Assembly: GCA_030650275.1 (NCBI GenBank)
Contig: JAUSEK010000015.1
Location: 67,834-131,833, forward strand
Origin: Candidatus Omnitrophota bacterium
Lineage (GTDB): Bacteria; Omnitrophota; Gorgyraeia; Zapsychrales; Fredricksoniimonadaceae
Reading direction: 5' to 3'
DNA length: 64,000 nucleotides
Shown here: one piece after another, positions 2,525 to 63,384 of the stretch
Position numbering within the stretch: the first letter of the stretch is position 1
Layout: each line of letters starts with the position of its first letter
Notes under the pieces: model-generated
The model's input: only the letters and a program-made list of their open reading frames with translations
What the model was told of the DNA's origin: nothing
Databases searched by the model: none
Translations under genes and position numbers: made by a program

Positions 2525-3427
2525 TTATTTCGCCGGGGCCAAAAGCTCTTGATTGATCTCGACCTTGGTTTTCTCGGCCAATTGATTGATGTGGTCCAAA
2601 ATGGCCTTTTGCTGTTTGCGCAGCGTTAAACCGGCGATCAAATCCTGTTTGACCCCGGCAAAGGGCTTCATCGCCCCGCCTTTTTTACTGTCCACCTTAA
2701 CGATATAAAAGCCCTCGGGCCCTTTGAACACGGAGCTGACGCCGCCGGCATCCAAATTGGCAATGGCACTTTGCATGGCTTCAAAAGGAGCTTTGGTGAA
2801 TGCCGGTAACGCTCCACCGCCGGAAGCGGTCTTGGCCTTGGACTGGGCCTTGGCCGTTTCAGCAAAATCCGCGCCCTGCAGGAGTTGGACTAAAATGTTC
2901 TTGGCCGCGGTTTCGTCGGCAACCATGATTTCGCGTACGGTATACTGCACTGGCTCAACAAAAAGGTCTTTGTTCTGGTCATAATATTCCTGGGCCTCTT
3001 TCTCGTCGGCAACAATGTCCTTGGTCAATTGATTGGCTAATTTTTGCACCAAAAGCGTGCGGCGGAAATCCTCCACCGCCTCGGTGATGTCGCTTTCCCG
3101 GGCGAGGCCGGAATTTTCGGCGTCCTTGACCAACAGCTGCTGGCGAATGAGTTCATTGAGAAGCGCTTCTTTGGACCCGGGCTTGGTGGCGTCAAAATCA
3201 GGCAGGCCTTCTTTAAGGAGTTTAAGGCGTTCTTCAAATTGCGACCCGGTCAACGTCCATCCGCCCACGCGGACAAGGACGTCTTTAGGGATAGGGGAAG
3301 ATGTTTCAGCCGCGCTTGGGGCCGGAGCCGGGGCTTTCTTGGGAGGACTAAAAAGATCACACCCTGTAAAAATAATTGTGAATAAAAAAACTGCGGCCAT
3401 CCGTGTCCAGCAAAATGCTCTCTTCAT
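2525..3427 (-). CDS. Parvulin-type peptidyl-prolyl cis-trans isomerase lipoprotein (SurA/PrsA-like)
   Basis: 300 aa. Lipoprotein-like N-terminus (FTGCDLFS). PpiC-like C-terminal region (FAETAKAQSKAKTASGGGALPAFTKAPFEAMQSA...GFYIVKVDSK). Confidence 0.6.
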   Translation of the reverse strand: MKRAFCWTRMAAVFLFTIIFTGCDLFSPPKKAPAPAPSAAETSSPIPKDVLVRVGGWTLTGSQFEERLKLLKEGLPDFDATKPGSKEALLNELIRQQLLVKDAENSGLARESDITEAVEDFRRTLLVQKLANQLTKDIVADEKEAQEYYDQNKDLFVEPVQYTVREIMVADETAAKNILVQLLQGADFAETAKAQSKAKTASGGGALPAFTKAPFEAMQSAIANLDAGGVSSVFKGPEGFYIVKVDSKKGGAMKPFAGVKQDLIAGLTLRKQQKAILDHINQLAEKTKVEINQELLAPAK

Positions 3428-18262: not shown

Positions 18263-19084
18263 ATGATCACAGGCATGACAGGTTTTGGGGCAAGCGAAGC
18301 GGCGGCGGGCAAGGTGAAGGCCTCCGTCGAGGTCAAGACCGTCAATCACCGGTATCTGGACGTGGCGTTTTATTTGCCGTCGGGATTTTCGTCGTTCGAG
18401 GAGAAGATCCACAAGATGGTGGCCAAGGGCATCCGCCGGGGGCGGGTGACCGTGACGGTCAAGATCACCGACAAGCCGCACATGATCATCCGGCTGAACC
18501 ACGACGCGGTGACCCGCTACCGCGGTTTCGCCCGCCAGATCGCCAGGGAATTCAAGGTCAGCGACGGGCTGTCGGCCGCGGACATCCTGCGCCTGCCCGG
18601 GGTGGTGGAGACCAAGGAGATGTTCGTCGAGGCCCACACGCTTTGGCCGGCCGTTGAGAAGGGGCTTGCCAAAGCCGTGGCCGGGGTGGTGGCCATGCGC
18701 CGCCGCGAAGGCAAGGCCCTGTGCGCGGACATCAGCGGCCAACTCAAACGCATGCTCAAGCAGATCGTATTGATCAAGGCGCGCTCGAACGCGCTTTTAA
18801 AAGAAAAGAAAAAGACCTCAAGCCGGGAAGAATTCACCTCTTATCAAAAGAGCAATGACATCAACGAAGAACTGGCCCGGCTGACCCACTACATCGACGA
18901 GGCCAGGGTCCTTTTAAGGCAAAGCGAGGGTGCCGGCAAGAAGATGGATTTTATTGCCCAGGAAATGCAAAGGGAAACCAACACCATCGGCTCGAAAGTG
19001 CAGGACAAGGACGTCGCGGGGGCGGTGATCGCCCTGAAGAGCAAGGTGGAAAAGATCCGCGAGCAAGCTAATAATGTCGAATAA
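18263..19084 (+). CDS. yicC: YicC family stress-induced protein (DUF1732)
   Basis: 273 aa. MITGMTGFG...VNHRYLDV N-terminal signature of the YicC family. It sits in the conserved position upstream of gmk. Confidence 0.75.
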   Translation: MITGMTGFGASEAAAGKVKASVEVKTVNHRYLDVAFYLPSGFSSFEEKIHKMVAKGIRRGRVTVTVKITDKPHMIIRLNHDAVTRYRGFARQIAREFKVSDGLSAADILRLPGVVETKEMFVEAHTLWPAVEKGLAKAVAGVVAMRRREGKALCADISGQLKRMLKQIVLIKARSNALLKEKKKTSSREEFTSYQKSNDINEELARLTHYIDEARVLLRQSEGAGKKMDFIAQEMQRETNTIGSKVQDKDVAGAVIALKSKVEKIREQANNVE

Positions 19085-19688
19085 CAGAGCTCGAAGGTCG
19101 AAGGTCGAAGGTCGAAGGCAAGGAAGAATTGTTATTATATCCGGTCCGTCGGGTTCAGGAAAAACCACGCTCCATAACCGCCTGCTGGACAGCCCCCGCC
19201 TGAAAGGCGCCTTGGTCAAGTCCATTTCCGCGACCACAAGGTCCCGTCGTCCCGGCGAGAAACACGGCCGCGATTATCTGTTTTTAACCCCAGCTCTGTT
19301 CCAGCATAAAATACGCCGGGGACACTTTTTGGAGTGGCAGAAGGTTTTCGGCAATTATTACGGGACGCCCAGACGCCAGGTGCGGACGCTTTTGAACAAG
19401 GGGGCGCACGTGCTTTTGTGCATTGACGTCAAAGGCGCGGCCGTGGTGCGAAAAGAATTTCCCGACGCGCTCAATATTTTTATCAAGACCCCGTCGATGA
19501 AAGCGCTGCGTGATCGGCTGACCAAGCGCGCTTCCGAAAACCGTGCGACCCTGGATGTTCGTCTCAAGGTGGCCGGACGGGAACTCAAAGAAGCCAGGCA
19601 TTATGATCATGTGGTGGTCAATGGACGATTGGACCGTGCGGTCCGTCAATTGGAGCGCATTGTCCGCGGCGAGCTTTGCGGGCATTGA
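19074..19688 (+). CDS. gmk: Guanylate kinase
   Basis: 204 aa. P-loop ISGPSGSGKTT. Guanylate kinase core. The N-terminal 20 codons contain a perfect 4 x 7-bp tandem repeat. Confidence 0.9.
   Translation: MSNNRARRSKVEGRRQGRIVIISGPSGSGKTTLHNRLLDSPRLKGALVKSISATTRSRRPGEKHGRDYLFLTPALFQHKIRRGHFLEWQKVFGNYYGTPRRQVRTLLNKGAHVLLCIDVKGAAVVRKEFPDALNIFIKTPSMKALRDRLTKRASENRATLDVRLKVAGRELKEARHYDHVVVNGRLDRAVRQLERIVRGELCGH
19091..19118. repeat. Perfect heptanucleotide tandem repeat (TCGAAGG)x4 inside the gmk 5' coding region
   Basis: Seen directly, 19091-19118. It encodes SKVEGRRQG. Confidence 0.9.
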
Positions 19689-51533: not shown

Positions 51534-52051
51534 TGGTTCCCCGCTTCCTTGCCCGTATTGAATGCTCCCTGGGCCAATGAAACGATCCCGAAGATCGCGA
51601 TCAGCAGAAGAAGCGATGTCAATTCAAAGGGAAGCAGATAATCCGTAAAGAGGACCCTGCCGATGGTTTCAATGGTCCCGCGGACCGAAGAAGGGCCCAT
51701 GGTCTGGGCCGCGATGAAACTTTTGACGGCCAAAAAGAATGAGGAGGCGAACATGAGCCCGACAACCCCTCCAAGCAACCGAAAACGGCTTTGTTGGACC
51801 GATGTGATCGTGGCCGCGTTAAGGTTCAGGCACATGACCACAAACAGGAAGAAAACGAGGACCGCCCCCGCGTAGACCAATATCAGGATGATCCCGACAA
51901 AAAAGGCCTCTAAAAGGACAAAAAGAGAAGACAGGGCAAAGATGGCGACGACCAGGGCCAGGACATTGTAGAGGGGGTTTCGCGCCAGAATGACGGCAAG
52001 GCTTGCCAGGACCAAAACAGCCGCAAAGAGATAAAAGAAAAGGGCAGGCAT
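51530..52051 (-). CDS. nuoJ: NADH-quinone oxidoreductase subunit J
   Basis: 173 aa. 5 TM. Confidence 0.8.
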   Translation of the reverse strand: MPALFFYLFAAVLVLASLAVILARNPLYNVLALVVAIFALSSLFVLLEAFFVGIILILVYAGAVLVFFLFVVMCLNLNAATITSVQQSRFRLLGGVVGLMFASSFFLAVKSFIAAQTMGPSSVRGTIETIGRVLFTDYLLPFELTSLLLLIAIFGIVSLAQGAFNTGKEAGNQ

Positions 52052-52132
52052 ATGCTCAATATAGAAATAACCGTCATATTGTCAAGAATATTGTGCTATT
52101 GTTGTATTTTTTCAGCGGATAGAGAGAAAATT

Positions 52133-52177
52133 TGTCATTCCCGAAAGTTTCTGTCGGGAATCCAGACAAGGAACCCC
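52133..52177 (+). repeat. Partial copy D (first hairpin only) of the multi-hairpin repeat, upstream of nuoJ at the island boundary
   Basis: TGTCATTCCCGAAAGTTTCTGTCGGGAATCCAGACAAGGAACCCC. Confidence 0.75.
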
Positions 52178-52245
52178 ATGTATTGGATCCCTGACACAAT
52201 TACAATTGCCATCAAAGGATCAGATGTTATAATGTGTGACAAAAT

Positions 52246-52449
52246 GTGAGGAATATTATGACCAAAATTCCAGAAGTTTACACCGTCGCAGAAGTAGCGC
52301 GGGCTTTAAAACTTAATCCGTATACTATACGGCGTCTTGTGCGTGAAAAGAAAATCCCAGCCATCAAAATCGGCGGGCATTGGCGGTTTAGGAAGGGTGA
52401 CATCAACCGTTTGCTGGCTAACCCCAGAAAAAGAAAGATGAAGCAATGA
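52246..52449 (+). CDS. Excisionase/AlpA-type helix-turn-helix DNA-binding protein
   Basis: 67 aa. YTVAEVARALKLNPYTIRRLVREKKIPAIKIGGHWRFRKGDI is the classic HTH_17/Xis signature. Stop overlaps the start of the next gene (ATGA). Confidence 0.75.
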   Translation: MRNIMTKIPEVYTVAEVARALKLNPYTIRRLVREKKIPAIKIGGHWRFRKGDINRLLANPRKRKMKQ

Positions 52450-55400
52450 GTACAGATTTAACATTTTTTACTAATGAAAAGGGACGTACCCTTCTTGATC
52501 GATTTAAAATTACTTTGGCGAATAACACTAAGTTTTTTGATGTGTTGGTTGGATACTTCAGAACTAGCGGTTTTTATCACTTGTACCAGTCGCTTGAGAA
52601 AGTCGAAAAGATTCGGATTTTAGTCGGGATCAACGTAAATAAACAGACACACGATCTATTGATTGAGGCGAAAGAGCAGCAGTTGGCGCTCGCGTTTTCC
52701 CATAAAGAAACAAAGGACGCGTTTGCGGATGAAGTCGCCCGGGAAATGGAGGAGTCGGAAGATAATGCGGAAACAGAGATTGGCGTCCAGAAGTTCATTG
52801 AATTCATAAAAAATGGCAAGCTTGAAATTCGCGCGTATCCTTCGCAGGATATTCACGCCAAGGTTTATATCATTCGTAAAGATCAATCTAAGAGTGAAGA
52901 TTTTGGTCGGGTGATCACTGGTTCAAGCAATTTTTCGTATGCAGGCCTCCATGAAAATCTTGAGTTTAACGTTGAGTTGAAGGATAGCAGGGATGTAAAG
53001 TTTGCTTTGGAGAAGTTTGAGGATCTCTGGAAGGATTCAGTTGATATTTCAGAGAAATATATTGAGACGGTTAACACAAGAACATGGCTCAATGATGCGA
53101 TTTCCCCACATGATCTGTACTTGAAATTTTTATACGAGTACTTTAAGGATGAATTAAATCAGTCCGACGAAGTTTTCTATCGCTATCTACCCATCGAATT
53201 CAAAAAATTTGAATATCAAGAGCAGGCAGTTCTTAACGCCAAAAAGATCCTTGAAGAGTATGGTGGTGTCTTCATCTCAGACGTAGTTGGCCTTGGGAAA
53301 ACATATATTTCAGCAATGCTTGCCAGCCAGCTTGATGGCAGAACCTTGGTCATAGCACCGCCTATTTTGCTTGAGAAAAATAATCCCGGCTCTTGGCCTA
53401 ATGTTTTTGATGACTTCCGGGTTCACGCGCACTTTGAGTCGATTGGTAAATTGGACGCCCTTGTCGAAGCTGGGACTGATAAATTTACGAATATTATTAT
53501 TGATGAAGCCCACCGGTTCCGTACTGAGAGCAACATGACCTATGAAAAATTGGCTGAGGTATGCCGTGGCAAGCGGGTTATTCTCGTTACAGCCACACCT
53601 TACAATAACTCACCCAAGGATATTTTAAGTCAAATTAAGTTGTTCCAAAAAGCGAGAAAAAGCACAATTCCAAACCTCCCCGATTTGGAGAAGTTTTTTA
53701 ACGGCCTTGATAGGCGATTAAAGGTTTTGGATCGTCAGCGAGATTATTCGGAATATATTAAGACCGTTAAGGAAAACGCCAGAGAGATCCGGGAAAAGGT
53801 GTTGAAGTATTTAATGGTTCGTCGCACCCGTTCAGAGATTATAAAATACTTTGGTGAGGATTTGGCAAAGCATAAACTCAAATTTCCCGATGTCGAGAAA
53901 CCAGAGCCACTTTTTTATGAACTTAATGATGAGGAAGATTTGGTATTCAGTCGAACTATTGAGTTGATCGCTCATAAATTTAAATACGCCCGCTACACTC
54001 CGATGCTTTATTACAAAGGGGAAGTGTCTCAACCAGAGAAATTATCCCAAAGAAACATGGGAAAATTTATGAAGATTCTGATGGTCAAACGGTTGGAGAG
54101 TAGTTTTTTTGCTTTTAGAAATACCCTTGATCGTTTTATTTATTCCTATGAGCAATTCATTAAAGAATTTGACGGTGGCAACGTCTATGTGAGCAAAAAA
54201 CACAGCAACAAAGTATTTGAGTTTTTGGAAAACGATGATGACGCGGCTGTTCAGCGCCTTATTGATGAAGGTAAGGCGGAGAAGTTTAAGAGTGGTGATT
54301 TCAAAGAAGGGTTGCTAAAAGATTTAAAGAGTGATCTGGATATATTAAAAGAAATTCATAAAATTTGGAGCACGGTTAAACGAGATCCGAAGCTATTGGC
54401 TTTTCTTGACCGGCTTGCCAGCAATCAAATCCTAAAGAAAAATAAACTCATCATTTTTACGGAATCCAAAGAAACGGCTGAATATTTAGCAAAAAATATT
54501 GAGATTAAATTTCCCAATACCACGCTTTGTTTTACTGGGGCATCAGGCGAGGTTATCCGCGAGAAGGTGATTGATAACTTTGATGCGAAAGTTAAACATC
54601 CAAAGGACGATTACCGGATTTTAGTATCAACAGAGGTTCTCTCCGAAGGTGTTAACTTGCATCGATCCAATGTGGTTATCAATTATGATATTCCATGGAA
54701 TCCTACCCGGATGATGCAAAGAGTTGGCCGCGTCAATCGAGTTGATACTAAATTTGACGTAATTTATACGTTCACCTTTTTCCCCACCAAACAAGCTAAC
54801 GATCAGATTAAGCTCAGAGAAGCGGCCGAGGCCAAGATTAATGCGTTTATCTCCATGCTTGGATCCGATGCTCGTCTTCTAACCGAAGGAGAGCCCATAG
54901 AACAGCATGAGCTATTTAATCGGTTAACTTCTAAGAGGACTATTACCGGTGAAGATGACGGCGAAGAGAGCGAATTGAAGTATCTGTATGTTATTAAGAC
55001 TATTCGGGATCAAGATCCGGAGATGTTTGAGAAAATCAAGCGGCTCCCCAGAAAATCAAGAACCGCGCGAGCCAACGGTGAAAAAGTTAATTCACTACTG
55101 ACATATTTTAGACGTGGAAAGATCGAGAAATTTTTTATTGCGGGGGGTAACGAGAAATCGCAGGAACTTGACTTTATGTCAGCAGCTAAAACTTTAGAGA
55201 GTGGGAAAGATGCCCCTAAAGGCAAGATTGATAACAAGAATTTTTATGAGCTTTTAGCTCAGAATAAACAGGCGTTTATTTATGCCACCACCGAGGAGTT
55301 GCCCGAGGTTAAATTGCGGGGCGGCCGGGATAGCGCGACGCAAGTCCTTAGGATTATAAAGGCCACCTTAAAAGACAGTAGGCAATTTACTGATGACCAG

Positions 55401-55643
55401 GAGTATTACCTTAAAAAAGTTCGCACACAATTGGAAGAGGGCGCTCTACCTAAGCAGACAACCAAGAAAACACTTCAGGCCTTAAATGATGAGCTTAAAA
55501 AGGGAGTTAATCCCCTGCGAATCCTCGCCCGTTTACAGGCAAATATACCGGCGAAGCTTCTCGAGGGACATTTTGTTGAAGATCATGCGCAAGTATTTGG
55601 AAAAAGAGAAGTCATATTATCGGAATATTTAATCGCCGGATAA
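52446..55643 (+). CDS. PLD-family nuclease domain fused to SNF2-family helicase
   Basis: 1065 aa. N-terminal single HKD motif (IHAKVYIIRKD...VITGSSNFSYAGLHENLEFNVEL). Walker A VVGLGKTY. DEAH (IIIDEAHRFR). Helicase-C motifs (LVSTEVLSEGVNLH, QRVGRVNRV). The frame is intact. Confidence 0.8.
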   Translation: MSTDLTFFTNEKGRTLLDRFKITLANNTKFFDVLVGYFRTSGFYHLYQSLEKVEKIRILVGINVNKQTHDLLIEAKEQQLALAFSHKETKDAFADEVAREMEESEDNAETEIGVQKFIEFIKNGKLEIRAYPSQDIHAKVYIIRKDQSKSEDFGRVITGSSNFSYAGLHENLEFNVELKDSRDVKFALEKFEDLWKDSVDISEKYIETVNTRTWLNDAISPHDLYLKFLYEYFKDELNQSDEVFYRYLPIEFKKFEYQEQAVLNAKKILEEYGGVFISDVVGLGKTYISAMLASQLDGRTLVIAPPILLEKNNPGSWPNVFDDFRVHAHFESIGKLDALVEAGTDKFTNIIIDEAHRFRTESNMTYEKLAEVCRGKRVILVTATPYNNSPKDILSQIKLFQKARKSTIPNLPDLEKFFNGLDRRLKVLDRQRDYSEYIKTVKENAREIREKVLKYLMVRRTRSEIIKYFGEDLAKHKLKFPDVEKPEPLFYELNDEEDLVFSRTIELIAHKFKYARYTPMLYYKGEVSQPEKLSQRNMGKFMKILMVKRLESSFFAFRNTLDRFIYSYEQFIKEFDGGNVYVSKKHSNKVFEFLENDDDAAVQRLIDEGKAEKFKSGDFKEGLLKDLKSDLDILKEIHKIWSTVKRDPKLLAFLDRLASNQILKKNKLIIFTESKETAEYLAKNIEIKFPNTTLCFTGASGEVIREKVIDNFDAKVKHPKDDYRILVSTEVLSEGVNLHRSNVVINYDIPWNPTRMMQRVGRVNRVDTKFDVIYTFTFFPTKQANDQIKLREAAEAKINAFISMLGSDARLLTEGEPIEQHELFNRLTSKRTITGEDDGEESELKYLYVIKTIRDQDPEMFEKIKRLPRKSRTARANGEKVNSLLTYFRRGKIEKFFIAGGNEKSQELDFMSAAKTLESGKDAPKGKIDNKNFYELLAQNKQAFIYATTEELPEVKLRGGRDSATQVLRIIKATLKDSRQFTDDQEYYLKKVRTQLEEGALPKQTTKKTLQALNDELKKGVNPLRILARLQANIPAKLLEGHFVEDHAQVFGKREVILSEYLIAG

Positions 55644-55646
55644 TGT

Positions 55647-58600
55647 ATGGATAAAAATACAAGCCACAAAATTATTAAGGATACTTTGGAAAGAGCATTT
55701 GATAAAAATAAATTTTTTCTATTTGCAAAGAATCTCTGCAATCAGATTGATGAATCAAAGGCATTTCAGTTAAGTGGGGCTTATATCCCAGATGCATTTC
55801 GCGGATACGTTAAGTCATATGAACGGCTTGGAACTTTTACCGACCCGGAAGATAAGAAGATAGATGTCTTGATTGTCTATCTTCAAAAGAAAACTTCTTT
55901 GGAGAGGGCCCGCACCGCACAGCGCAATTTCGTTGCTCGCTATCTCAAAGATCGTGATCAAAAAGATGCTGGTCTGGTTGCTTTCGTTTCCCCAAACTCG
56001 GAGGATTGGCGGTTTTCCCTGATCAAAATGGAGTACAAGTTTACCGAGGGGAAATCCGGGAAGGTAAAGGTCAAAGAAGAATTCACCCCGGCGCGTAGAT
56101 GGTCTTTCCTTGTCGGGGCTAATGAAAACAGCCACACAGCCAAGAGTCGTTTGGCCCCGATCGTTCAGGATGATGAGCATAACCCTACCCTGAATTTTTT
56201 TGAAGAAGCATTCAATATTGAAAAAGTCACAAAAGAGTTCTTTGAGAAATATCGTGACCTGTTTTTGCGGGTTAAAGAAACTCTCGATGATGTGGTTAAA
56301 CAAGACCCGAAGATCAAGAAAGATTTTATTGCTAAGGGCGTGGATACTGTTGACTTTGCAAAGAAGCTACTCGGGCAGATTGTTTTTCTTTATTTTTTAC
56401 AAAAAAAAGGTTGGTTCGGTGTCGAACGCGATGCAGATTGGGGTTCCGGGCCTAAAAATTTTTTACGTCAACTCTTTGATAAAAAACACAGCGATTATAG
56501 GAACTTTTTTAACGATATTTTAGAACCGTTATTTTATGAAGCCCTTGCCCGTGAACGAGATCATGATTTTTACAGTCGCTTCAACTGTAAAATTCCTTTT
56601 TTAAACGGCGGTCTATTTGATCCAATCAATAATTATGACTGGGTTCATACTGATGTTCTTTTACCCGACGATTTATTCTCGAATGAAAGGAAAACTAAAG
56701 AAGGCGATATTGGTGACGGTATTTTAGATATTTTTGACCGGTATAATTTTACAGTTAAAGAAGATGAGCCACTTGAAAAGGAAGTGGCCATTGATCCTGA
56801 AGTGTTAGGAAAAATATTTGAAAAGCTTGGAGCGATAACGCCAAGTAGATTTAATGAATGGGCAGAAGCAGTCCGTTCCGGGGAAAAGAGCAAGGAGCAG
56901 GAGGCTAATAAAAAATTGGGAGTTTATTATACTCCTCGTGAAATTGTTCACTACATGTGTGTGCAAAGTTTAGTTAATTATTTAGATATGGAACTTCATG
57001 GGAAGGTTTTACAAGAAGATCTGGAAAAATTTATTAAGTATGGAGAGATGGCCGTTGAGCACGAAGCGCTATATGCTGAAAAGATTGAACAGAATCCGGA
57101 TTATAAAGGGAGATACGCCAAACCCAAATTGCCAGTTAGCATTGAACAAAACGCAGAAATAATTGATAGATCTTTAGCCAACATTAAAGTTTGCGACCCT
57201 GCTATTGGTTCGGGTGCTTTCCCAGTAGGCATGATGACAGAGATTGTTCGCAATCGGAATACGCTTTCAAGTTATCTTAAGGATCCAAGTCGTACGATTT
57301 ATAATTTCAAACGTGATTGTATTCAAAATTCGCTTTATGGTGTGGACATTGACCGGGTGCTGTTGAAATCGCCAAGCTTCGTTTGTGGCTGTCGCTTGTT
57401 GTGGATGAGGACGACATTAAGCAGATTAAGCCGTTACCAAATTTGGACTACAAGATAATGCAGGGCAATAGCTTGTCGGAAGAGTTTGAGGGTGTAAAGC
57501 TGTTTGATGACAAGCTAATTTTTGCTGTTAATTTCGATAAGGAAAAACAGGTTGAAGATCTCAAGGAAAAACAGAACACTCTATCGAGTGAGTATATTAA
57601 ACTTCATCAGGATAATAAACTGACCAATATAAGGAAAGAGGAGATAAAAGTAGAACTAAAGAAAATAAATAATCAGATTAAGAGCCTCAACCAGTCTGGG
57701 AAGAAGGCTCATGACGATACTGGGTTGTTTGATGTTTTCAGCAATGCAAAGAAGAAAGCGGACGAGTTAAAGCGCCTGCATAAAGAATTCTTTGAGACGA
57801 CCCAAAAGAAGGATGATCTTAAGAAACAGATTGAAAAGCTCGAATGGGATCTTATTGAGGCTACCCTTAAGGAACAAGGGAAAAATTCAGAGCTTAAAAA
57901 ACTTGAGGAGTTTAAGAAGACAAATACAAAACCTTTTTTTCTTTGGAAGCTCCACTTTGCCGATGTATTTGAAGAGAAGGGCGGTTTCGATGTTGTAATT
58001 GCGAATCCACCGTATATTAAAGAAGATGTGAATAGACATGCCTTTGACGGGCTGAGAAAGTCGGATTGTTATCAGGGTAAAATGGACATATGGTATTTGT
58101 TTGGTTCTGAAGGGTTGGATATTTTGAGAAATCATGGGGTAATGACATTTATTGCTACAAATAATTGGGTTACGAACGATGGTGCATCTAAGTTTAGAAA
58201 TAAAATAATTAAGTATGGCCGTATTATTGATTTTATTGATTTTGGAGATTATAAAATTTTTTCTGCGGGAATCCAAACAATGGTTTTTGTAGTTCTTAAG
58301 GATAACGAATCACCAGAATATGATTTGAAGTATGCCAAGCTACTTGATAATAATGCCGACGGAACGTTGTTAACAAGTTTTTTAAATGAACCCCATGAAT
58401 TATTAAATCATCGATTTGAGAAATTTAAAGTTTCAATTAGAAGATCCTCCTATTTAGAAGGTTATATTAAATTTATCCACCCCACCATTGGCAGGATATT
58501 AGATAGGATAAAGAGTGCAGGTTGTTTTAATTTAATGGATCACGAAATATTTAGTGGGATTGATGTAATGCAGGATTTTGTCGCCAAATCACATTTGGAA

Positions 58601-59329
58601 AAGCTGAATGGAAAAATTGGTGTTGGTGATGGTGTTTTTGTCTTAAGTGAAATAGAAAAAACACGAATCAAATGGAGCAACAAGGAATTAAATTTAATAA
58701 AACCATATTATACGACTCGGGAAATCGCAAGATATTATGCCAATAAATCCAATAGGCATTGGATTGTTTATACCGGGGCTGACGCTAACGATAAAATTAG
58801 CCTTTATCCAAATATAAAAAAACACTTAGATAAATTTAAAAAAATAATTACATCTGTAAATAAACCATATGGTTTACACAGAACCCGTGATGAAGAAAAT
58901 TTTCTTGGTCAAAAAATATTTTCTATTCGTAAATGTGCAATACCATCCTTTTCCTTGGTAAATTTTCCGTGCTATGTGTCTAGGGCATTCTTGATTATTA
59001 AGACAAACAGAATTGATTTTAAATATCTCCTGGCGATCTTGAATTCTAAAGTCACTGTTTTTTGGTTACTGCATAAGGGGAAGCTCCAAGGAAATCAATT
59101 TCAGGTAGATAAGGTACCATTGATGGATATCCCAATAGTATGCGGTCAACCTTCTAATCAAAAGCCCATAATTGATCTTGCGGATAAGATTTTATCATTG
59201 GCTCAGGATAACAAACAGACGCAAGATAAAATAAAAGAATACGAGCGTCAAATTGATCAAATGGTCTATGCGCTTTATGGCCTGACGGACGAGGAGATTA
59301 AGATCGTTGAGGAAAGTGTGGGTAAATGA
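55647..59329 (+). pseudogene. Gamma-class N6-adenine DNA methyltransferase (PglX/DrmMI/type IIG-like, ~1230 aa) disrupted by a -1 frameshift at ~57353
   Basis: ORF 55647-57458 carries the conserved N-terminal region (KIPFLNGGLFDP) and motif I (VCDPAIGSGAFPV...YGVDIDR). ORF 57383-59329 continues with AVEIAKLRLWLSLVVDE...NLDYKIMQGNSL, motif IV VVIANPPYIKE, and the C-terminal target-recognition region ending QMVYALYGLTDEEIKIVEES. The frames join if GACCGGG is read as GACCCGGG. Confidence 0.8.
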
Positions 59330-59946
59330 TAATAAAGATGGAAGAAGATACAAGATACCAGAAAGCGATACAAAGAAATATTGATTCGATTTTTCATGCT
59401 TTGTGGGAGTGGAAAACGATAGAAGCCTTTGAGCAATATGTAGAAGGAAAAAGGATCTATGTTTTAGGCCAAAATTTTTTTAAAATAATGCCGGTTGCCT
59501 TTTTTGGTGACATGTTAAGAAACGCCATTAATGTGCTTGATAAACACAGTGATGTCGCTTCATTTTGGTATATTCTAGAAGTAGGCGAAATTAAATCGTT
59601 AGAGATATATTCAGAACAAAAAATTGATTCTTTGAAAGATTTGGCTGGGAAATTAAAACACATTCGTGATAAAGTTTTTTTTCATCATGATAAGAATGGT
59701 GTTTTAGATACAAAGAAAATTTGGAAAGAAGCCGACATTGTAGGGAAAGATGTTGGCGAGGCCATTCAATATTTATTTTCTATATTGAAAGAGTTATATG
59801 AAAAGGTCATGAAAAAACAATATCACTCCGATCCTGATAATAGCATTGGGGAAGATTTCGTTAAACTATTAAATTTTGCAGCAGAAAATGGTTTTATTGA
59901 GGTTCGTTCGGAGAATTTTCGGGGACGTCTTCGAGTCTGTGGGTAG
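59326..59946 (+). CDS. Hypothetical protein, translationally coupled to the methyltransferase
   Basis: 206 aa. No recognisable motif. ATGA overlap with the upstream stop. Confidence 0.45.
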   Translation: MIIKMEEDTRYQKAIQRNIDSIFHALWEWKTIEAFEQYVEGKRIYVLGQNFFKIMPVAFFGDMLRNAINVLDKHSDVASFWYILEVGEIKSLEIYSEQKIDSLKDLAGKLKHIRDKVFFHHDKNGVLDTKKIWKEADIVGKDVGEAIQYLFSILKELYEKVMKKQYHSDPDNSIGEDFVKLLNFAAENGFIEVRSENFRGRLRVCG

Positions 59947-59983
59947 GATTAATCGTTAAATCTAGAGAGAAGAAAAAAACGTC

Positions 59984-60817
59984 ATGGCACAAAAATTCTA
60001 TGAAAAAGCATCAGTTCAAGTAGCAATAGTTGCGGGTATTTTTTCGTTGCTTTACTGCGGAATAACTATCTGGAACGATCGATCACAATTAAAACAAGAC
60101 AATCAAAATTATGTTCGAGAATTGATTCAAAAAGACAGTCGCATTGCAAGCTTAGAGCGAGAGATCCAACGATTAGAAATTCAACTCGTACCTTTAAAAA
60201 TAGTCTCGCTGGAAGGGCAATCTTTTATATTTAATGTTGCTAAGATTTCACAGTTAGGAGATTTGTCATCTTGGCATAATAAGTATGGCGGCCAACGACA
60301 AAGCTATGAGGAATTATTATCTTGGGGAAAAAAAGAAAATAGTTCCGAAATAAAGAAAAAGATTTCTGTCGAGACAGAAAGACTAGAAGAAATTTATGAC
60401 CCACGTATTATGATACCAACCATAGAACAGCCTATTTCTATATGTAAATTTATAACTCAGCCAAATATTCCTGCTTGTGCTTGGGGGCTCGAACCGCCTA
60501 CAGGTTACGATGCAAAAAATGTATTTCATCATCTGACTGAAAGGATATGGACTGAACGCGCCAGAGCCGCCTGTCTATTAAGGAATATAAGGACATCGCA
60601 GTATAAAGATCAAATAGACAAAGAAAAGCTTTTTGACACTCTCGTATCTCTCATGAAAGAAGAAAATGAAAAGAGCTTATTTGTTAGCAAAATGGCTCTA
60701 AATACCTATAGCGAATTGACGGGATTTTCACCTTCTGGCGTGTTTGATTTTGATGGCGCGATTAATGATTGGAAAAGCATGGAAAGAAAAAAAGAAATTT
60801 TAAAAATAAACTTCTGA
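59984..60817 (+). CDS. Hypothetical membrane-anchored coiled-coil protein
   Basis: 277 aa. One N-terminal TM (VAIVAGIFSLLYCGITIW) then coiled-coil (ELIQKDSRIASLEREIQRLEIQL). No known domain. Confidence 0.4.
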   Translation: MAQKFYEKASVQVAIVAGIFSLLYCGITIWNDRSQLKQDNQNYVRELIQKDSRIASLEREIQRLEIQLVPLKIVSLEGQSFIFNVAKISQLGDLSSWHNKYGGQRQSYEELLSWGKKENSSEIKKKISVETERLEEIYDPRIMIPTIEQPISICKFITQPNIPACAWGLEPPTGYDAKNVFHHLTERIWTERARAACLLRNIRTSQYKDQIDKEKLFDTLVSLMKEENEKSLFVSKMALNTYSELTGFSPSGVFDFDGAINDWKSMERKKEILKINF

Positions 60818-60947
60818 AAGTTGGGACGTCCCCTTAATCAGATGGTTGGAATAGGAAATTTTGATGACGCATAAAGAATCCGAAACAATCGAATTCAAAA
60901 AATCCACCGCCGAGGTTAAAGTGGGGGATGGCCGGGGAGAGGAGTAA

Positions 60948-62201
60948 GTGAAAACAATGTCATTGAAATCAATCGGTTTTGGTGAATCGACGACTGTCGA
61001 ATGGAAGCCATCGCTGTCGCAGATCCATGAGATCATCGAAAGCATAACAGCTTTTGCTAATACCGAGGGTGGACGATTGTTTGTAGGCATATCGAAGACT
61101 GGAGAGGGCATAGGTGTTCAGATTGGTAAAGGTACGGTAGAAGGTCTGGTTAATCGTATCGCTCAACATACTGATCCGAAAATCCAGCCGAAGATCACGG
61201 TCAAAAAGATTAAAGGCAAACAGGTTATTGTTATTGAAGTCAAACAGTCCAAGGATAGATTGGTCCTGGCCGATGGCCGGCCATATAAGCGTGTGGGGCC
61301 TTCGACCCGGCAAATGGGCAAGGATGAATACGAAGGGCTGATCCTGGAGAAACATAAGGGTAAACACTATTTTGATGAGCAGATCTGTGATGGCGCAAAG
61401 ATCTCGGATGTCAGCAGAGAAAAGCTTTTGGCATTTATTAAAGAAGCTAAACGGGAAAGGGGCTTAAGCATTGCTGAGGGTTTGTCGGTGACGGATATTT
61501 TGCGAAAGCTTAAACTCGTAAAGAATGACAAGCTAACCAATGGAGCTATTTTGTTGTTTGGTAAAGACACACAGAATTTCTTTTTACAATCTGAGCTAAA
61601 AGCGGTTCGATTTAAGGGCTTAGATGAAACCAGACCCATGCTTGATTTTAAAACGATTGGCGGGGATGCGATCACGCTTCTTAAAAAGGCTGAAGGTTTT
61701 ATTTATGACCATATCCCGATGAGGGCATGGATACAACCTGGGAAACTACAACGTCAGGAAAAATGGCTGTATCCGGAGGAAGCTATAAGAGAGGCTTTGG
61801 CCAATGCTTTGGCGCATAGAGACTACAGTAGTCCGGGCAAGGTTCAGGTGAGGATCTTTGATGATCGCTTGGAGATATGGAATCCGGGGCTTTTACCGCC
61901 ACCATTAACACTGGAGAAGTTAAAAGGAAAACATGATTCAGTTCCGCGCAATCCGCTTATTGCCAAGGCGTTTTTCTGGATCAAATATGCTGAAGATGTT
62001 GGATCGGGGACAAGCAAGATCATTCAGTGGTGTAAGGAGTGGGGATTGCCCGAGCCGACATATGAGGAAGCCGGGGCCAGTTTTGTGACGGTATTTCATA
62101 ATCCTAAGCCGGAGGATGGTGGTCAGCAAGGGGGCCAGAAACAGGGGCCAGAAACAGGGGCCAGAAAATTACCCCCAAACAAGCTATGGTTTTGGATTTG
62201 A
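60948..62201 (+). CDS. AlbA_2 (Schlafen-like) + HATPase_c_4 putative DNA-binding ATPase; C-terminal wHTH out of frame (62186-62362)
   Basis: 417 aa. N-terminal ESTTVEWKPSL...AFANTEGGRLFVGI (AlbA_2/divergent AAA). C-terminal HATPase_c_4-like (IREALANALAHRDY). The winged-helix segment expected for this family (MVLDLIRRNPLISRHDIASKLEINDSVVRKHLDALKAKGVLKRVG) is encoded immediately downstream in another frame. Confidence 0.6.
   Translation: MKTMSLKSIGFGESTTVEWKPSLSQIHEIIESITAFANTEGGRLFVGISKTGEGIGVQIGKGTVEGLVNRIAQHTDPKIQPKITVKKIKGKQVIVIEVKQSKDRLVLADGRPYKRVGPSTRQMGKDEYEGLILEKHKGKHYFDEQICDGAKISDVSREKLLAFIKEAKRERGLSIAEGLSVTDILRKLKLVKNDKLTNGAILLFGKDTQNFFLQSELKAVRFKGLDETRPMLDFKTIGGDAITLLKKAEGFIYDHIPMRAWIQPGKLQRQEKWLYPEEAIREALANALAHRDYSSPGKVQVRIFDDRLEIWNPGLLPPPLTLEKLKGKHDSVPRNPLIAKAFFWIKYAEDVGSGTSKIIQWCKEWGLPEPTYEEAGASFVTVFHNPKPEDGGQQGGQKQGPETGARKLPPNKLWFWI
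62130..62168. repeat. 13-bp tandem repeat (GGGGCCAGAAACA x ~3) at the frame break of the AlbA_2 gene
   Basis: Seen directly: gggggccagaaacaggggccagaaacaggggccagaaaa. Confidence 0.85.
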
Positions 62202-62337
62202 TCAGGCGGAACCCATTGATATCCCGCCATGATATTGCGAGTAAGCTTGAGATCAATGATTCCGTGGTTCGGAAGCATTTGGACGCATTGAAGGCCAAAG
62301 GCGTGCTTAAGAGGGTTGGCCCTGATAAAGGCGGACA

Positions 62338-63384
62338 TTGGGAGGTTGTGGCTTGGAAATAAAGAACTCATTCGGCCTGACCAAGGTCAAGCATGTCATC
62401 GCCGTCTCTTCCTGCAAAGGCGGGGTGGGCAAATCCACTGTTGCCGCGGGATTTGCGCGTTCTTTATGCCAACAGGGCTTTAAAACAGGACTTTTGGATG
62501 CCGACATCCACGGACCATCCCTTCCAACGCTGTTTAACCTGACCTCCGGCGTTAAGGTCCTTTCCAATGAATTCCGGATGATCGTTCCTGTTGAATCCCA
62601 GGGGCTCAAATTGATGTCCTTTGGTTTTTTGCTGGGGGACGCGCCGGCTGTGATGCGCGGGCCCATCGTCACCCGGTATATCCAGCAGATGATGCTTCAG
62701 ACCGACTGGGGCGAACTGGATTATCTGATCGTTGACATGCCGCCCGGGACAGGGGACGTGCAGTTGACCATCACCCAGTCCGCGCGCCTGACGGGCGCTG
62801 TGATCGTCACCACCCGCCAGACCTTGTCGCTGGTGGACGTGGCGCGCGGGATCCTGATGTTTGAGAAGGTGAGCGTTCCCATTTTAGGCATCGTTGATAA
62901 CATGGCCTATTTTGTCTGCGGATCCTGCCAGACAAAGCATTATCTGTTTGGCGGCGAGCATGCGCTGGAAAAACGTTTCGGCGTCAAGACGCTGGTGGAG
63001 ATCCCGTTGATCGCGGACCTTGCTCTGGAGTCCTATATGGACCAGGGCGCGCAAGCGATGTTGGACGCGGTCAAGGCACAGGCACAGGCCAAAGAGCAGC
63101 TTCCCGAGGTCAGTTTTGACGCAGAGCATATCCATTTGAAATTTGCCGACGGCAGGCAGGTGCAGGTGAAAAATCGCGACCTGCGTTTGAATTGCATGTG
63201 CGCTTTATGCGTGAGTGAATTGACCGGACAGAAATTGATCGCCCCTGCGAAAATACGCCCTGACATTGCTCCCAAAGAAATCGTGCCGCTGGGCAATTAT
63301 GCCTTGAGCATCACATGGAACGACGGCCATTCTTCAGGTATCTATCCCTATTCCATGTTTGAATTATGGGGACACAATACTTAA
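62338..63384 (+). CDS. Mrp/NBP35 (ApbC-like) Fe-S cluster carrier ATPase with C-terminal DUF971-like domain
   Basis: About 345 aa. The start is uncertain; an alternative TTG lies near 62353. P-loop SCKGGVGKST. CxxC (FVCGSC). C-terminal ...NYALSITWNDGHSSGIYPYSMFELW. Confidence 0.8.
   Translation: MGGCGLEIKNSFGLTKVKHVIAVSSCKGGVGKSTVAAGFARSLCQQGFKTGLLDADIHGPSLPTLFNLTSGVKVLSNEFRMIVPVESQGLKLMSFGFLLGDAPAVMRGPIVTRYIQQMMLQTDWGELDYLIVDMPPGTGDVQLTITQSARLTGAVIVTTRQTLSLVDVARGILMFEKVSVPILGIVDNMAYFVCGSCQTKHYLFGGEHALEKRFGVKTLVEIPLIADLALESYMDQGAQAMLDAVKAQAQAKEQLPEVSFDAEHIHLKFADGRQVQVKNRDLRLNCMCALCVSELTGQKLIAPAKIRPDIAPKEIVPLGNYALSITWNDGHSSGIYPYSMFELWGHNT

Follow-up and report, generated by a model that had tools for sequence, protein, structure and literature searches.

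A gene at 60948-62362 of a 64,000-nucleotide (nt) stretch of Candidatus Omnitrophota bacterium DNA (contig JAUSEK010000015.1, positions 67,834 to 131,833; the whole stretch is called the window here) carries a 13-nt tandem repeat at the point where the frame of a predicted Schlafen-GHKL defence protein parts from the frame of its winged helix-turn-helix (wHTH). We read this repeat, with a probability of roughly 0.58, as a slippage-prone contingency repeat caught in the unfused state, which detaches the predicted DNA-binding tail from the protein body. In the mechanism that we propose, the tether between body and wHTH would be encoded by a tandem repeat, with a 13-nt unit in the clade that has the window's wHTH type, and replication slippage would add or remove whole units. 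One or four copies of the repeat core would leave the wHTH fused to the body, and two or three would end translation soon after the repeat, with loss of the wHTH. The window would thus hold an out-of-frame allele, a Schlafen-GHKL protein of 414-417 amino acids (aa) minus its DNA-binding tail, in which one additional unit or two fewer would restore the fusion. We infer that switching may be frequent and useful enough in the population to amount to phase variation of a defence function, and that loss of the wHTH would either abolish sensing or targeting or deregulate the protein. The parts of the gene are as follows.

60948-62201, plus strand: body open reading frame (ORF), 417 aa from a GTG, or 414 aa from the NCBI start, ATG 60957; ends with ...GGQKQGPETGARKLPPNKLWFWI and stop.
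62118-62167, plus strand: linker repeat tract, with core GGTGGTCAGCAA (GGQQ, 62118-62129, in frame), GGGGGCCAGAAA (GGQK, 62130-62141) and two further cores at 13-nt spacing.
62168-62362, plus strand: wHTH module in the -1 frame, ITPKQAMVLDLIRRNPLISRHDIASKLEINDSVVRKHLDALKAKGVLKRVGPDKGGHWEVVAWK and stop; its sole start codon, ATG 62186, lies within helix 1.
62199-62201, plus strand: TGA stop of the body frame, 32 nt past the repeat and within the wHTH coding sequence.

Tandem Repeats Finder placed the array at 62131-62167, with a period of 13, 2.8 copies, 100% matches and the consensus GGGGCCAGAAACA, and it is the top-scoring tandem repeat of the whole 64-kb window. A perfect 37-nt array of period 13 contains 24 self-matching positions and is beyond chance for 64 kb. 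Across 62100-62200 the sequence reads ...GAGGAT GGTGGTCAGCAA GGGGGCCAGAAA CA GGGGCCAGAAA CA GGGGCCAGAAA ATTACCCCCAAACAAGCTATG..., and here and below each GGNGGNCAGAAA in a tract is counted as one core. Two 13-nt steps in the tract leave the downstream sequence 2 nt out of frame: the body ORF ends with a 24-residue out-of-frame tail, and the wHTH is encoded in the -1 (+2) frame relative to the body, which is open from 62108. An earlier reading of the window, made from the sequence only, had placed a 13-bp repeat exactly at this frame break, in an ORF stopping at 62201, and the wHTH in a different frame at 62186-62362. Both observations hold, and the 58-aa ORF at 62186-62362 is as that reading quoted it, with the refinement that the domain starts upstream of ATG 62186. 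The 58-aa ORF matches Pfam HTH_24 (4e-7) and MarR_2, and in the rebuilt fusion the MarR_2 match starts 7 residues ahead of that ATG, so that the 58-aa ORF represents a clipped domain.

The arithmetic of the frames was followed by varying the number of full units in silico. With 0, 3 or 6 units, fused proteins of 462, 475 and 488 aa were obtained, and with 1, 2, 4 or 5 units there was no fusion and translation terminated early. Loss of two units (462 aa) or gain of one (475 aa) therefore joins the body and wHTH frames, as the sequence-only reading had calculated, and a C-terminal HTH in the same polypeptide, absent from the window allele, appears only after one of these two changes. Because removal of two units restores the single polypeptide typical of the family, the proposal of a repeat-mediated frameshift is borne out as well. 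No frame of the 13-nt unit contains a stop codon. The 13-mer is not dispersed in the window, where a single other match (at most 2 mismatches) lies within chance expectation, and the repeat region gave no Rfam match and no inverted repeats of note; on these grounds we rejected a dispersed element, a binding-site array and an RNA as explanations of the repeat.

Pfam searches of the body identified SLFN_AlbA_2 (PF04326) at residues 13-123 (nt 60984-61316; E = 5.2e-23, 82 bits against a cutoff of 25) and the GHKL domain HATPase_c_4 (PF13749) at residues 298-382 (nt 61839-62093; E = 3.9e-23). The body also contains the E-x3-N-x5-D stretch REALANALAHRD, which we take to be the GHKL ATP-binding N-box. 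Its product is identical to P0001, recorded at NCBI as 'MAG: ATP-binding protein [Candidatus Omnitrophota bacterium]' (MAG, metagenome-assembled genome), and human SLFN12 structures gave a weak phmmer match. Proteins of the pSlfn-HisKinase-HTH type account for 19.2% of the prokaryotic Schlafens, a group of tRNA nucleases that act against phage (PMC13056530), and a 'Schlatpase' supradomain of PF04326 plus PF13749, mostly followed by a short C-terminal HTH, has been described together with SLFN-pAgo fusions (bioRxiv 10.64898/2026.05.29.728809). Judged by its domains, the window gene is a prokaryotic Schlafen of the 'Schlatpase + C-terminal HTH' type, with a predicted AlbA_2 nuclease, a GHKL ATPase, a disordered tether and a winged helix. 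It shares with these proteins the order AlbA_2, HATPase_c_4 and HTH and a place in a defence island, and a weak PADLOC match of the locus to the pAgo model PDLC02394 is consistent with the SLFN-pAgo fusions; unlike them, the window allele has its HTH out of frame. The labels 'defence-associated' and 'ATPase', as we use them, derive from this family literature and from gene context.

In the closest full-length homologues (65-81% identity, 457-491 aa; among the best 120), the wHTH is part of the same polypeptide, a point on which the sequence-only reading had proposed an orthologue alignment as a check. The same was seen in DNA. By tblastn on 66 fetched loci, one frame runs through the linker in nearly all, and of about 55 loci where the DNA past the body could be read, all but three keep the body frame open for a further 189-288 nt, through the wHTH. 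The exceptions are the window, the near-identical pair L058/L059 and L064 (loci are numbered with L and proteins with P). We rejected L064 as a third linker break since its error-ridden contig has three frameshifts within 450 nt, one of them in an A-run, and L058/L059 as an independent intact example since the gene is 5'-truncated at residue 257.

Intact homologues have a repeat of their own between ...FVTVFHNP and the wHTH. In these proteins the segment is a perfect or near-perfect 12-nt repeat present 3-4.7 times (GSEKSSEK, TVEKTVEK, TSQKTSQK, SREKSREK), with perfect units in L001, L002, L015, L020, L022, L023, L026, L036 and L056; one further clade has a degenerate 11-nt unit that is read in three frames (GENAEKMRRKYGENAEK). 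The 12-nt linkers of the sister clades occupy the same GHKL-wHTH position as the window repeat, share its purine-rich ...GAGAAA/CAGAAA motif and include perfect copies that point to ongoing slippage, but a 12-nt unit alters only the length of the tether, whereas a 13-nt (12 + 1) unit alters the frame. An AlphaFold model of an intact relative, P0002, bears on what the tether does (mean predicted local distance difference test score, pLDDT, 86). In this model the repeat-encoded residues 389-405 form the only internal disordered stretch (pLDDT <50), lying between a well-folded body and a wHTH of three helices plus a wing (pLDDT about 90) whose helix 1 begins at the equivalent of ..KQ. A disordered linker is expected to tolerate the unit in whichever frame it is read, and the repeat encodes, as modelled, a tether of little sequence importance.

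Units of 13 nt were at first seen only in the window, L033, L067, L058/L059 and L016, and later also in L068-L076. The window's wHTH type (xTxKQ..VLDLI..NP.ISR...KL.INxS..KHLDAL.K....RVGPDKGGHWEV) recurs in L033, L067, L016 and L068-L076 and is always preceded by 13-nt units, the canonical form being GGTGGYCAGAAAA; the window's own unit is a variant (GGGGCC) without the GTG of the canonical unit. With one or four cores the frame is kept, with two or three it is broken, and the alleles are distributed as follows.

Four cores, fused: L033, L067 (= P0002).
Four cores, fused, from protein sequence only: P0130, P0131, P0155, P0168.
Three cores, broken: the window, L071, L076, L074.
Three cores, orphan module without a body: L072/L073.
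Two cores, broken: L075, L070.
Two cores, remnant or orphan: L058/L059, L069, L068, L016.

The closest comparison is between L033 (JGI) and L071 (ENA), whose flanks match without a difference over 924 nt upstream and 815 nt downstream, a single 13-nt unit being all that separates them: L033, with four cores, is fused, and in L071, with three, the body ends at VVRK and a stop, with the wHTH separate. Two further loci, L076 (three cores) and L075 (two cores), are 91-94% identical to L033 and L071. This series of 4, 3, 3 and 2 cores, together with the constant association of the window's wHTH type with the 13-nt unit, lends comparative support to slipped-strand control, as the sequence-only reading had suggested. 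Farther afield, L074, from a Candidatus Scalindua rubra MAG and within a GmrSD/HsdR/RhuM island, has a 414-aa AlbA_2 plus HATPase_c_4 gene followed by a 71-aa wHTH ORF with three cores, which by sequence comparison is the window's state in another phylum. The fused four-core linker has the form GGQK(R/G)WSEKVVRKGGQK, the unit being translated in all three frames (GGQK/RWSEK/VVRK), and such three-frame read-through (for example, GGQKRWSEKVVRKGGQK) was found in L033, P0002/L067, P0130, P0131, P0155 and P0168. Reading of the unit in three frames implies that the lineages of these fused alleles were at some time out of frame.

The scope of these searches affects how the allele list is to be read. 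Most of the out-of-frame alleles came from a search listing short proteins only, and the list supports no ON:OFF frequency. A word-indexed wHTH search returned no protein longer than 121 aa among the best 120 listed, and P0002 was absent from them; in a HMMER search of representatives at 50% identity, partial proteins and multi-wHTH proteins occur together, which makes length uninformative. Genome- and metagenome-contig scans gave no second copy of the window's species, and exact-protein look-ups of the 414-aa product, the 58-aa ORF and the downstream Mrp protein found none on record elsewhere. The canonical double unit had 0 matches in a viral-contig scan, and tblastn against plasmids gave distant matches only.

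Conservation was compared for both parts of the gene. The wHTH of fused, broken and orphan loci has a proportion of nonsynonymous differences (pN) of 0.06-0.27 and of synonymous differences (pS) of 0.51-0.95, with pS near saturation, and for the window wHTH against its relatives the values are 0.13-0.26 and 0.58-0.85. In a 14-sequence alignment that includes the window, its wHTH has all 21 of 21 invariant columns. The body keeps 112 of the 114 columns that are at least 95% conserved among 72 full-length homologues, the exceptions being I155V and E263Q, and the single disabling lesion in the gene is the repeat. These comparisons suggest that the gene is not like an old pseudogene and would fit either a recent loss or an allele that has been in frame for part of its history.

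The Schlafen gene lies at the right edge of a defence island whose GC content is 32-45%, versus 50-55% outside. The island and its other genes are listed here.

52000-62370, unstranded: low-GC defence island (Pfam, PADLOC and GC content), flanked by nuo genes and mrp/NUBPL.
52446-55643: HKD plus Snf2 helicase (Pfam/PADLOC).
55647-57458 and 57383-59329: frameshifted Type IIG restriction-methylase (Pfam/PADLOC).
59326-59946: HEPN/AbiU2 protein (Pfam/PADLOC).
59984-60817: ORF without an assigned family.

The Type IIG gene consists of two overlapping ORFs (603 and 648 aa) separated by a 1-nt frameshift at about 57350-57358. Its frame changes at ..GVDID|RVLL.., with the family motif DIDPGAVEIAKLRLWL going on in the +2 frame, and the lesion, which makes this the second frameshifted defence gene of the island, looks like a 1-nt loss in GACC(C)GGGTG. 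Directly upstream of the Schlafen gene is a 26-codon ORF, MTHKESETIEFKKSTAEVKVGDGRGEE and stop, at 60866-60946, in frame with the main ORF and split off by a TAA (60944-60946); its first ~19 residues resemble the N-terminal end of another AlbA_2 protein, as in a stump left by an earlier gene. Elsewhere in the window, a perfect 7-nt repeat, TCGAAGG, is present 4.0 times at 19091-19118, within the N-terminal extension (..RRSKVEGRRQG..) of a guanylate-kinase-like ORF at 19074-19688. It begins 7 nt past the end of the ORF at 18263-19084 and is a second coding-sequence repeat whose unit is not a multiple of 3.

The main and serious rival to a contingency repeat is plain decay, in which the linker repeat is a mutational weak point, the truncation by slippage is neither adaptive nor reversible, and the island is eroding around a gene that has recently become a pseudogene. 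We consider this explanation possible but somewhat unlikely. Several observations weigh against the contingency-repeat interpretation, and some of them are also direct arguments for decay. The split Type IIG gene in the same island and the substitution E263Q (CAA, 61734-61736), at a Glu invariant in 72 of 72 homologues (AWIExGKLQRQEKW), both fit relaxed selection; residue 263 lies upstream of the REALANALAHRD motif and could not be placed relative to the ATPase site, 3lmm and SLFN12 being the sole matches in a PDB sequence search. The AlbA_2 gene stump immediately upstream and frameshifts at other positions in the genes of L007, L014, L034, L053 and L061 point the same way. Truncated remnants and orphan modules are many (L058/L059, L069, L068, L016 and L072/L073), which indicates that decay is common in the Schlafen-GHKL family.

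Other reservations concern the repeat. About three copies of a 13-nt unit predict far less slippage than in classical contingency tracts, so that the switching rate is probably modest. The near-identical pairs L058/L059 and L072/L073 keep their copy number despite 6 and 3 substitutions, respectively, from which the tract would change about as fast as a few substitutions build up over 3 kb; it is probably hypermutable, but slower than classical contingency tracts. The copy-number differences are known from relatives, whose units have the canonical GTG that the window unit does not. Finally, the contigs of L033 and L071 have nearly the same ends; the two may come from the same or sibling samples, and the difference between them could then reflect a choice made by an assembler, not two strains.

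Decay does not readily account for four observations. The gene keeps 112 of 114 conserved body columns and all invariant wHTH columns of the 14-sequence alignment; strong purifying selection acts on the wHTH throughout the out-of-frame lineages; the 13-nt unit has been kept across phyla, though sister clades use 12-nt units; and the three-frame reading of in-frame alleles shows that loss of frame has been reversed in evolution.

Intact linker-plus-wHTH ORFs, the orphan modules, with no Schlafen-GHKL body on the 5' side occur at L068 590-820, L072 3380-3720 (= L073) and L016 4330-4589, preceded by an unrelated ORF, an RMMBL fragment or a rearranged mosaic gene. In L072 the module follows a long tract of degenerate repeats, and the tail of another wHTH (..GGHWEVHD and stop) lies directly upstream of that in L016. 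In L058, GC-rich minus-strand coding sequence (..GGFIAWCACPASGGASPP..) is found at 843-1028 and again at 2814-3080, flanking the truncated Schlafen remnant together with its neighbour, and may represent a small mobile or repeat element involved in the truncation.

The sequence-only reading had regarded a wHTH encoded as a separate small gene with its own start in orthologues as an argument against slippage, and a stable two-gene arrangement, perhaps with translational coupling, would have the wHTH made from the GTG in the repeat of relatives and from ATG 62186 here. Such small genes are formally on record: in a wHTH profile search, 33 of 128 retrieved proteins of ~70 aa, from at least 33 distinct relatives, start with M[VA]RKGGQK and were called as separate genes (NCBI labels P0154 and P0194 as wHTH regulators). 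Their start, however, was called at the GTG that the penultimate core contains in its GGTGG (GTG GYC AGA AAA GGT GGT CAG AAA), an automatic by-product of the GGTGG unit. In all cases for which the DNA was read (8 proteins, 9 loci) there are two or three cores, and the wHTH is out of frame with the body or the body is lost. On this comparison we read the M[VA]RKGGQK genes as out-of-frame alleles divided by gene callers, with no evidence of an independent start.

Two further points favor two genes, namely that orphan modules persist without a body (L068, L072/L073, L016) and that ATG 62186 overlaps the body stop by 16 nt. Against this, the window unit has lost the GTG, ATG 62186 falls within helix 1 and has no Shine-Dalgarno-like sequence upstream, the closest full-length homologues are fused, and a flank-identical allele occurs both fused and split (L033/L071). 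We consider a stable two-gene arrangement improbable.

The broken frame could also be an assembly or sequencing artefact, the true number of units being one that keeps the sequence in frame. The source is a MAG, another frameshift lies nearby, and poor contigs exist in the family (L064). A 37-nt perfect array is, however, shorter than a read and than typical final k-mers, and the error would have to be a whole 13-nt unit rather than a homopolymer slip. The out-of-frame state also recurs in independent assemblies from four sources (NCBI, ENA, JGI and Logan), and no obvious split pairs were seen among the long ORFs covering the remainder of the window, in a survey that did not go gene by gene. 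An artefact is thus very improbable.

Programmed ribosomal frameshifting would join the two frames in the existing sequence, either by a -1 slip in the window or by a +1 slip at AAA-AGG of the relatives' canonical unit. The candidate site in the window is given here.

62174-62180, plus strand: C CCA AAC heptamer in the body frame, a candidate for a -1 slip into the wHTH frame; we take it to be a chance match.

In form (X XXY YYZ), frame and position the heptamer would suit such a slip, but it merely encodes TPKQ, is absent from the relatives whose linkers were read and has no downstream stimulatory structure (z = -1.18), and an X XXY YYZ site is expected by chance in about 1 in 8 overlaps of ~30 codons. 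The canonical unit contains CAG AAA AGG, at which a +1 slip would read GGQKGGQK, like the 4-residue repeats of the sister clades, but the window unit lacks AAA-AGG and would need two shifts. States with two cores and with three both occur, and a single programmed shift cannot serve both. We therefore rejected the -1 slip at C CCA AAC, which has neither structure nor conservation, and also the +1 slip at AAA-AGG as a general explanation, as three-core alleles need two shifts and the window unit is without the motif; of the alternatives weighed here, programmed frameshifting is the one we find hardest to credit. The programmed frameshift genes dnaX (-1) and prfB (+1) likewise give a short and a long product from two overlapping frames of one locus. 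At the window locus, unlike in these genes, we found no conserved shift site or stimulator, and the relation between the frames varies with repeat number.

Frame switching mediated by simple sequence repeats (SSRs) is a well-known mechanism. Phase-variable Type III mod and Type I hsd genes constitute 'phasevarions', and a Campylobacter Type IIG enzyme is fused or unfused under poly-G control. SSR contingency loci in defence genes have been reviewed (PMC11868660, PMC7383803). Like these loci, the contingency repeat proposed here lies within coding sequence, its unit length is not divisible by 3, and slippage by whole units switches the reading frame after it; near-identical relatives differ in copy number, the gene belongs to a defence island, and the sequence past the repeat is intact and under selection in OFF alleles. 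It differs from them in having a 13-nt unit at 2-4 copies rather than units of 1-7 nt at many, with probably slower switching; in lying in an interdomain tether, where it removes one domain and does not silence the gene; and in having a unit that several environmental phyla share and that goes with one wHTH type, with an ON state that reads three frames. In the literature we found no description of such switching in the Schlafen-GHKL family, of its position in an interdomain tether, of a cross-phyla 13-nt unit tied to one wHTH type or of three-frame read-through in fused alleles; neither of the two Schlafen papers (PMC13056530; bioRxiv 10.64898/2026.05.29.728809) mentions frameshifts, repeats or phase variation.

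Linkers and wHTH modules also vary in ways other than unit number. In L007 (2611-2963)/L029 and L028 (3665-3942), which come from sibling JGI samples, the bodies match at 100% and 99.96% identity as far as ...FVTVFYNPK and the downstream flank at 98.2%, and yet the linker and wHTH are unrelated, an 11-nt-repeat module in the one and a 12-nt-repeat module in the other, as in a cassette swap. Tandem wHTH copies, from 2 to 13 and each after its own repeat linker, are found in P0249-P0256, P0263, P0264 and P0285 (two modules in P0252, three in P0251, eleven in P0249), so that cassettes also multiply in tandem. Extra partial copies, comprising the GHKL end, linker and wHTH or the wHTH alone, lie 3' of full-length family genes at L003 3263-3592, L050 3908-4138 and L018 4642-4872. 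A broader and more doubtful interpretation, resting on comparison of these loci, is that linker and wHTH would form a mobile, switchable DNA-binding cassette diversified across phyla by frame toggling, cassette replacement and the storage or duplication of extra cassettes. We regard this as unlikely; if it were true, it would amount to a specificity-varying system for the Schlafen nuclease, akin to hsdS shuffling and phasevarions, and would partly explain the split between 'HisKinase' and 'HisKinase-HTH' in published censuses.

The anti-phage tRNA-nuclease role of bacterial Schlafens, in which a C-terminal HTH is common, came to light only very recently. Domain-architecture censuses and automatic annotation would miscount the family where an out-of-frame allele appears as an 'ATP-binding protein' and a 70-aa 'wHTH regulator' starting at the repeat GTG, and some of the census architectures recorded as 'HisKinase only' could be such alleles. 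If the window gene does carry a contingency repeat, the fused and unfused forms would provide a natural allele pair for probing whether the HTH serves as a sensor, in targeting or in autoregulation, and repeat-driven bet-hedging would extend from host-adapted pathogens to uncultured environmental phyla, including Omnitrophota, Planctomycetota and others.

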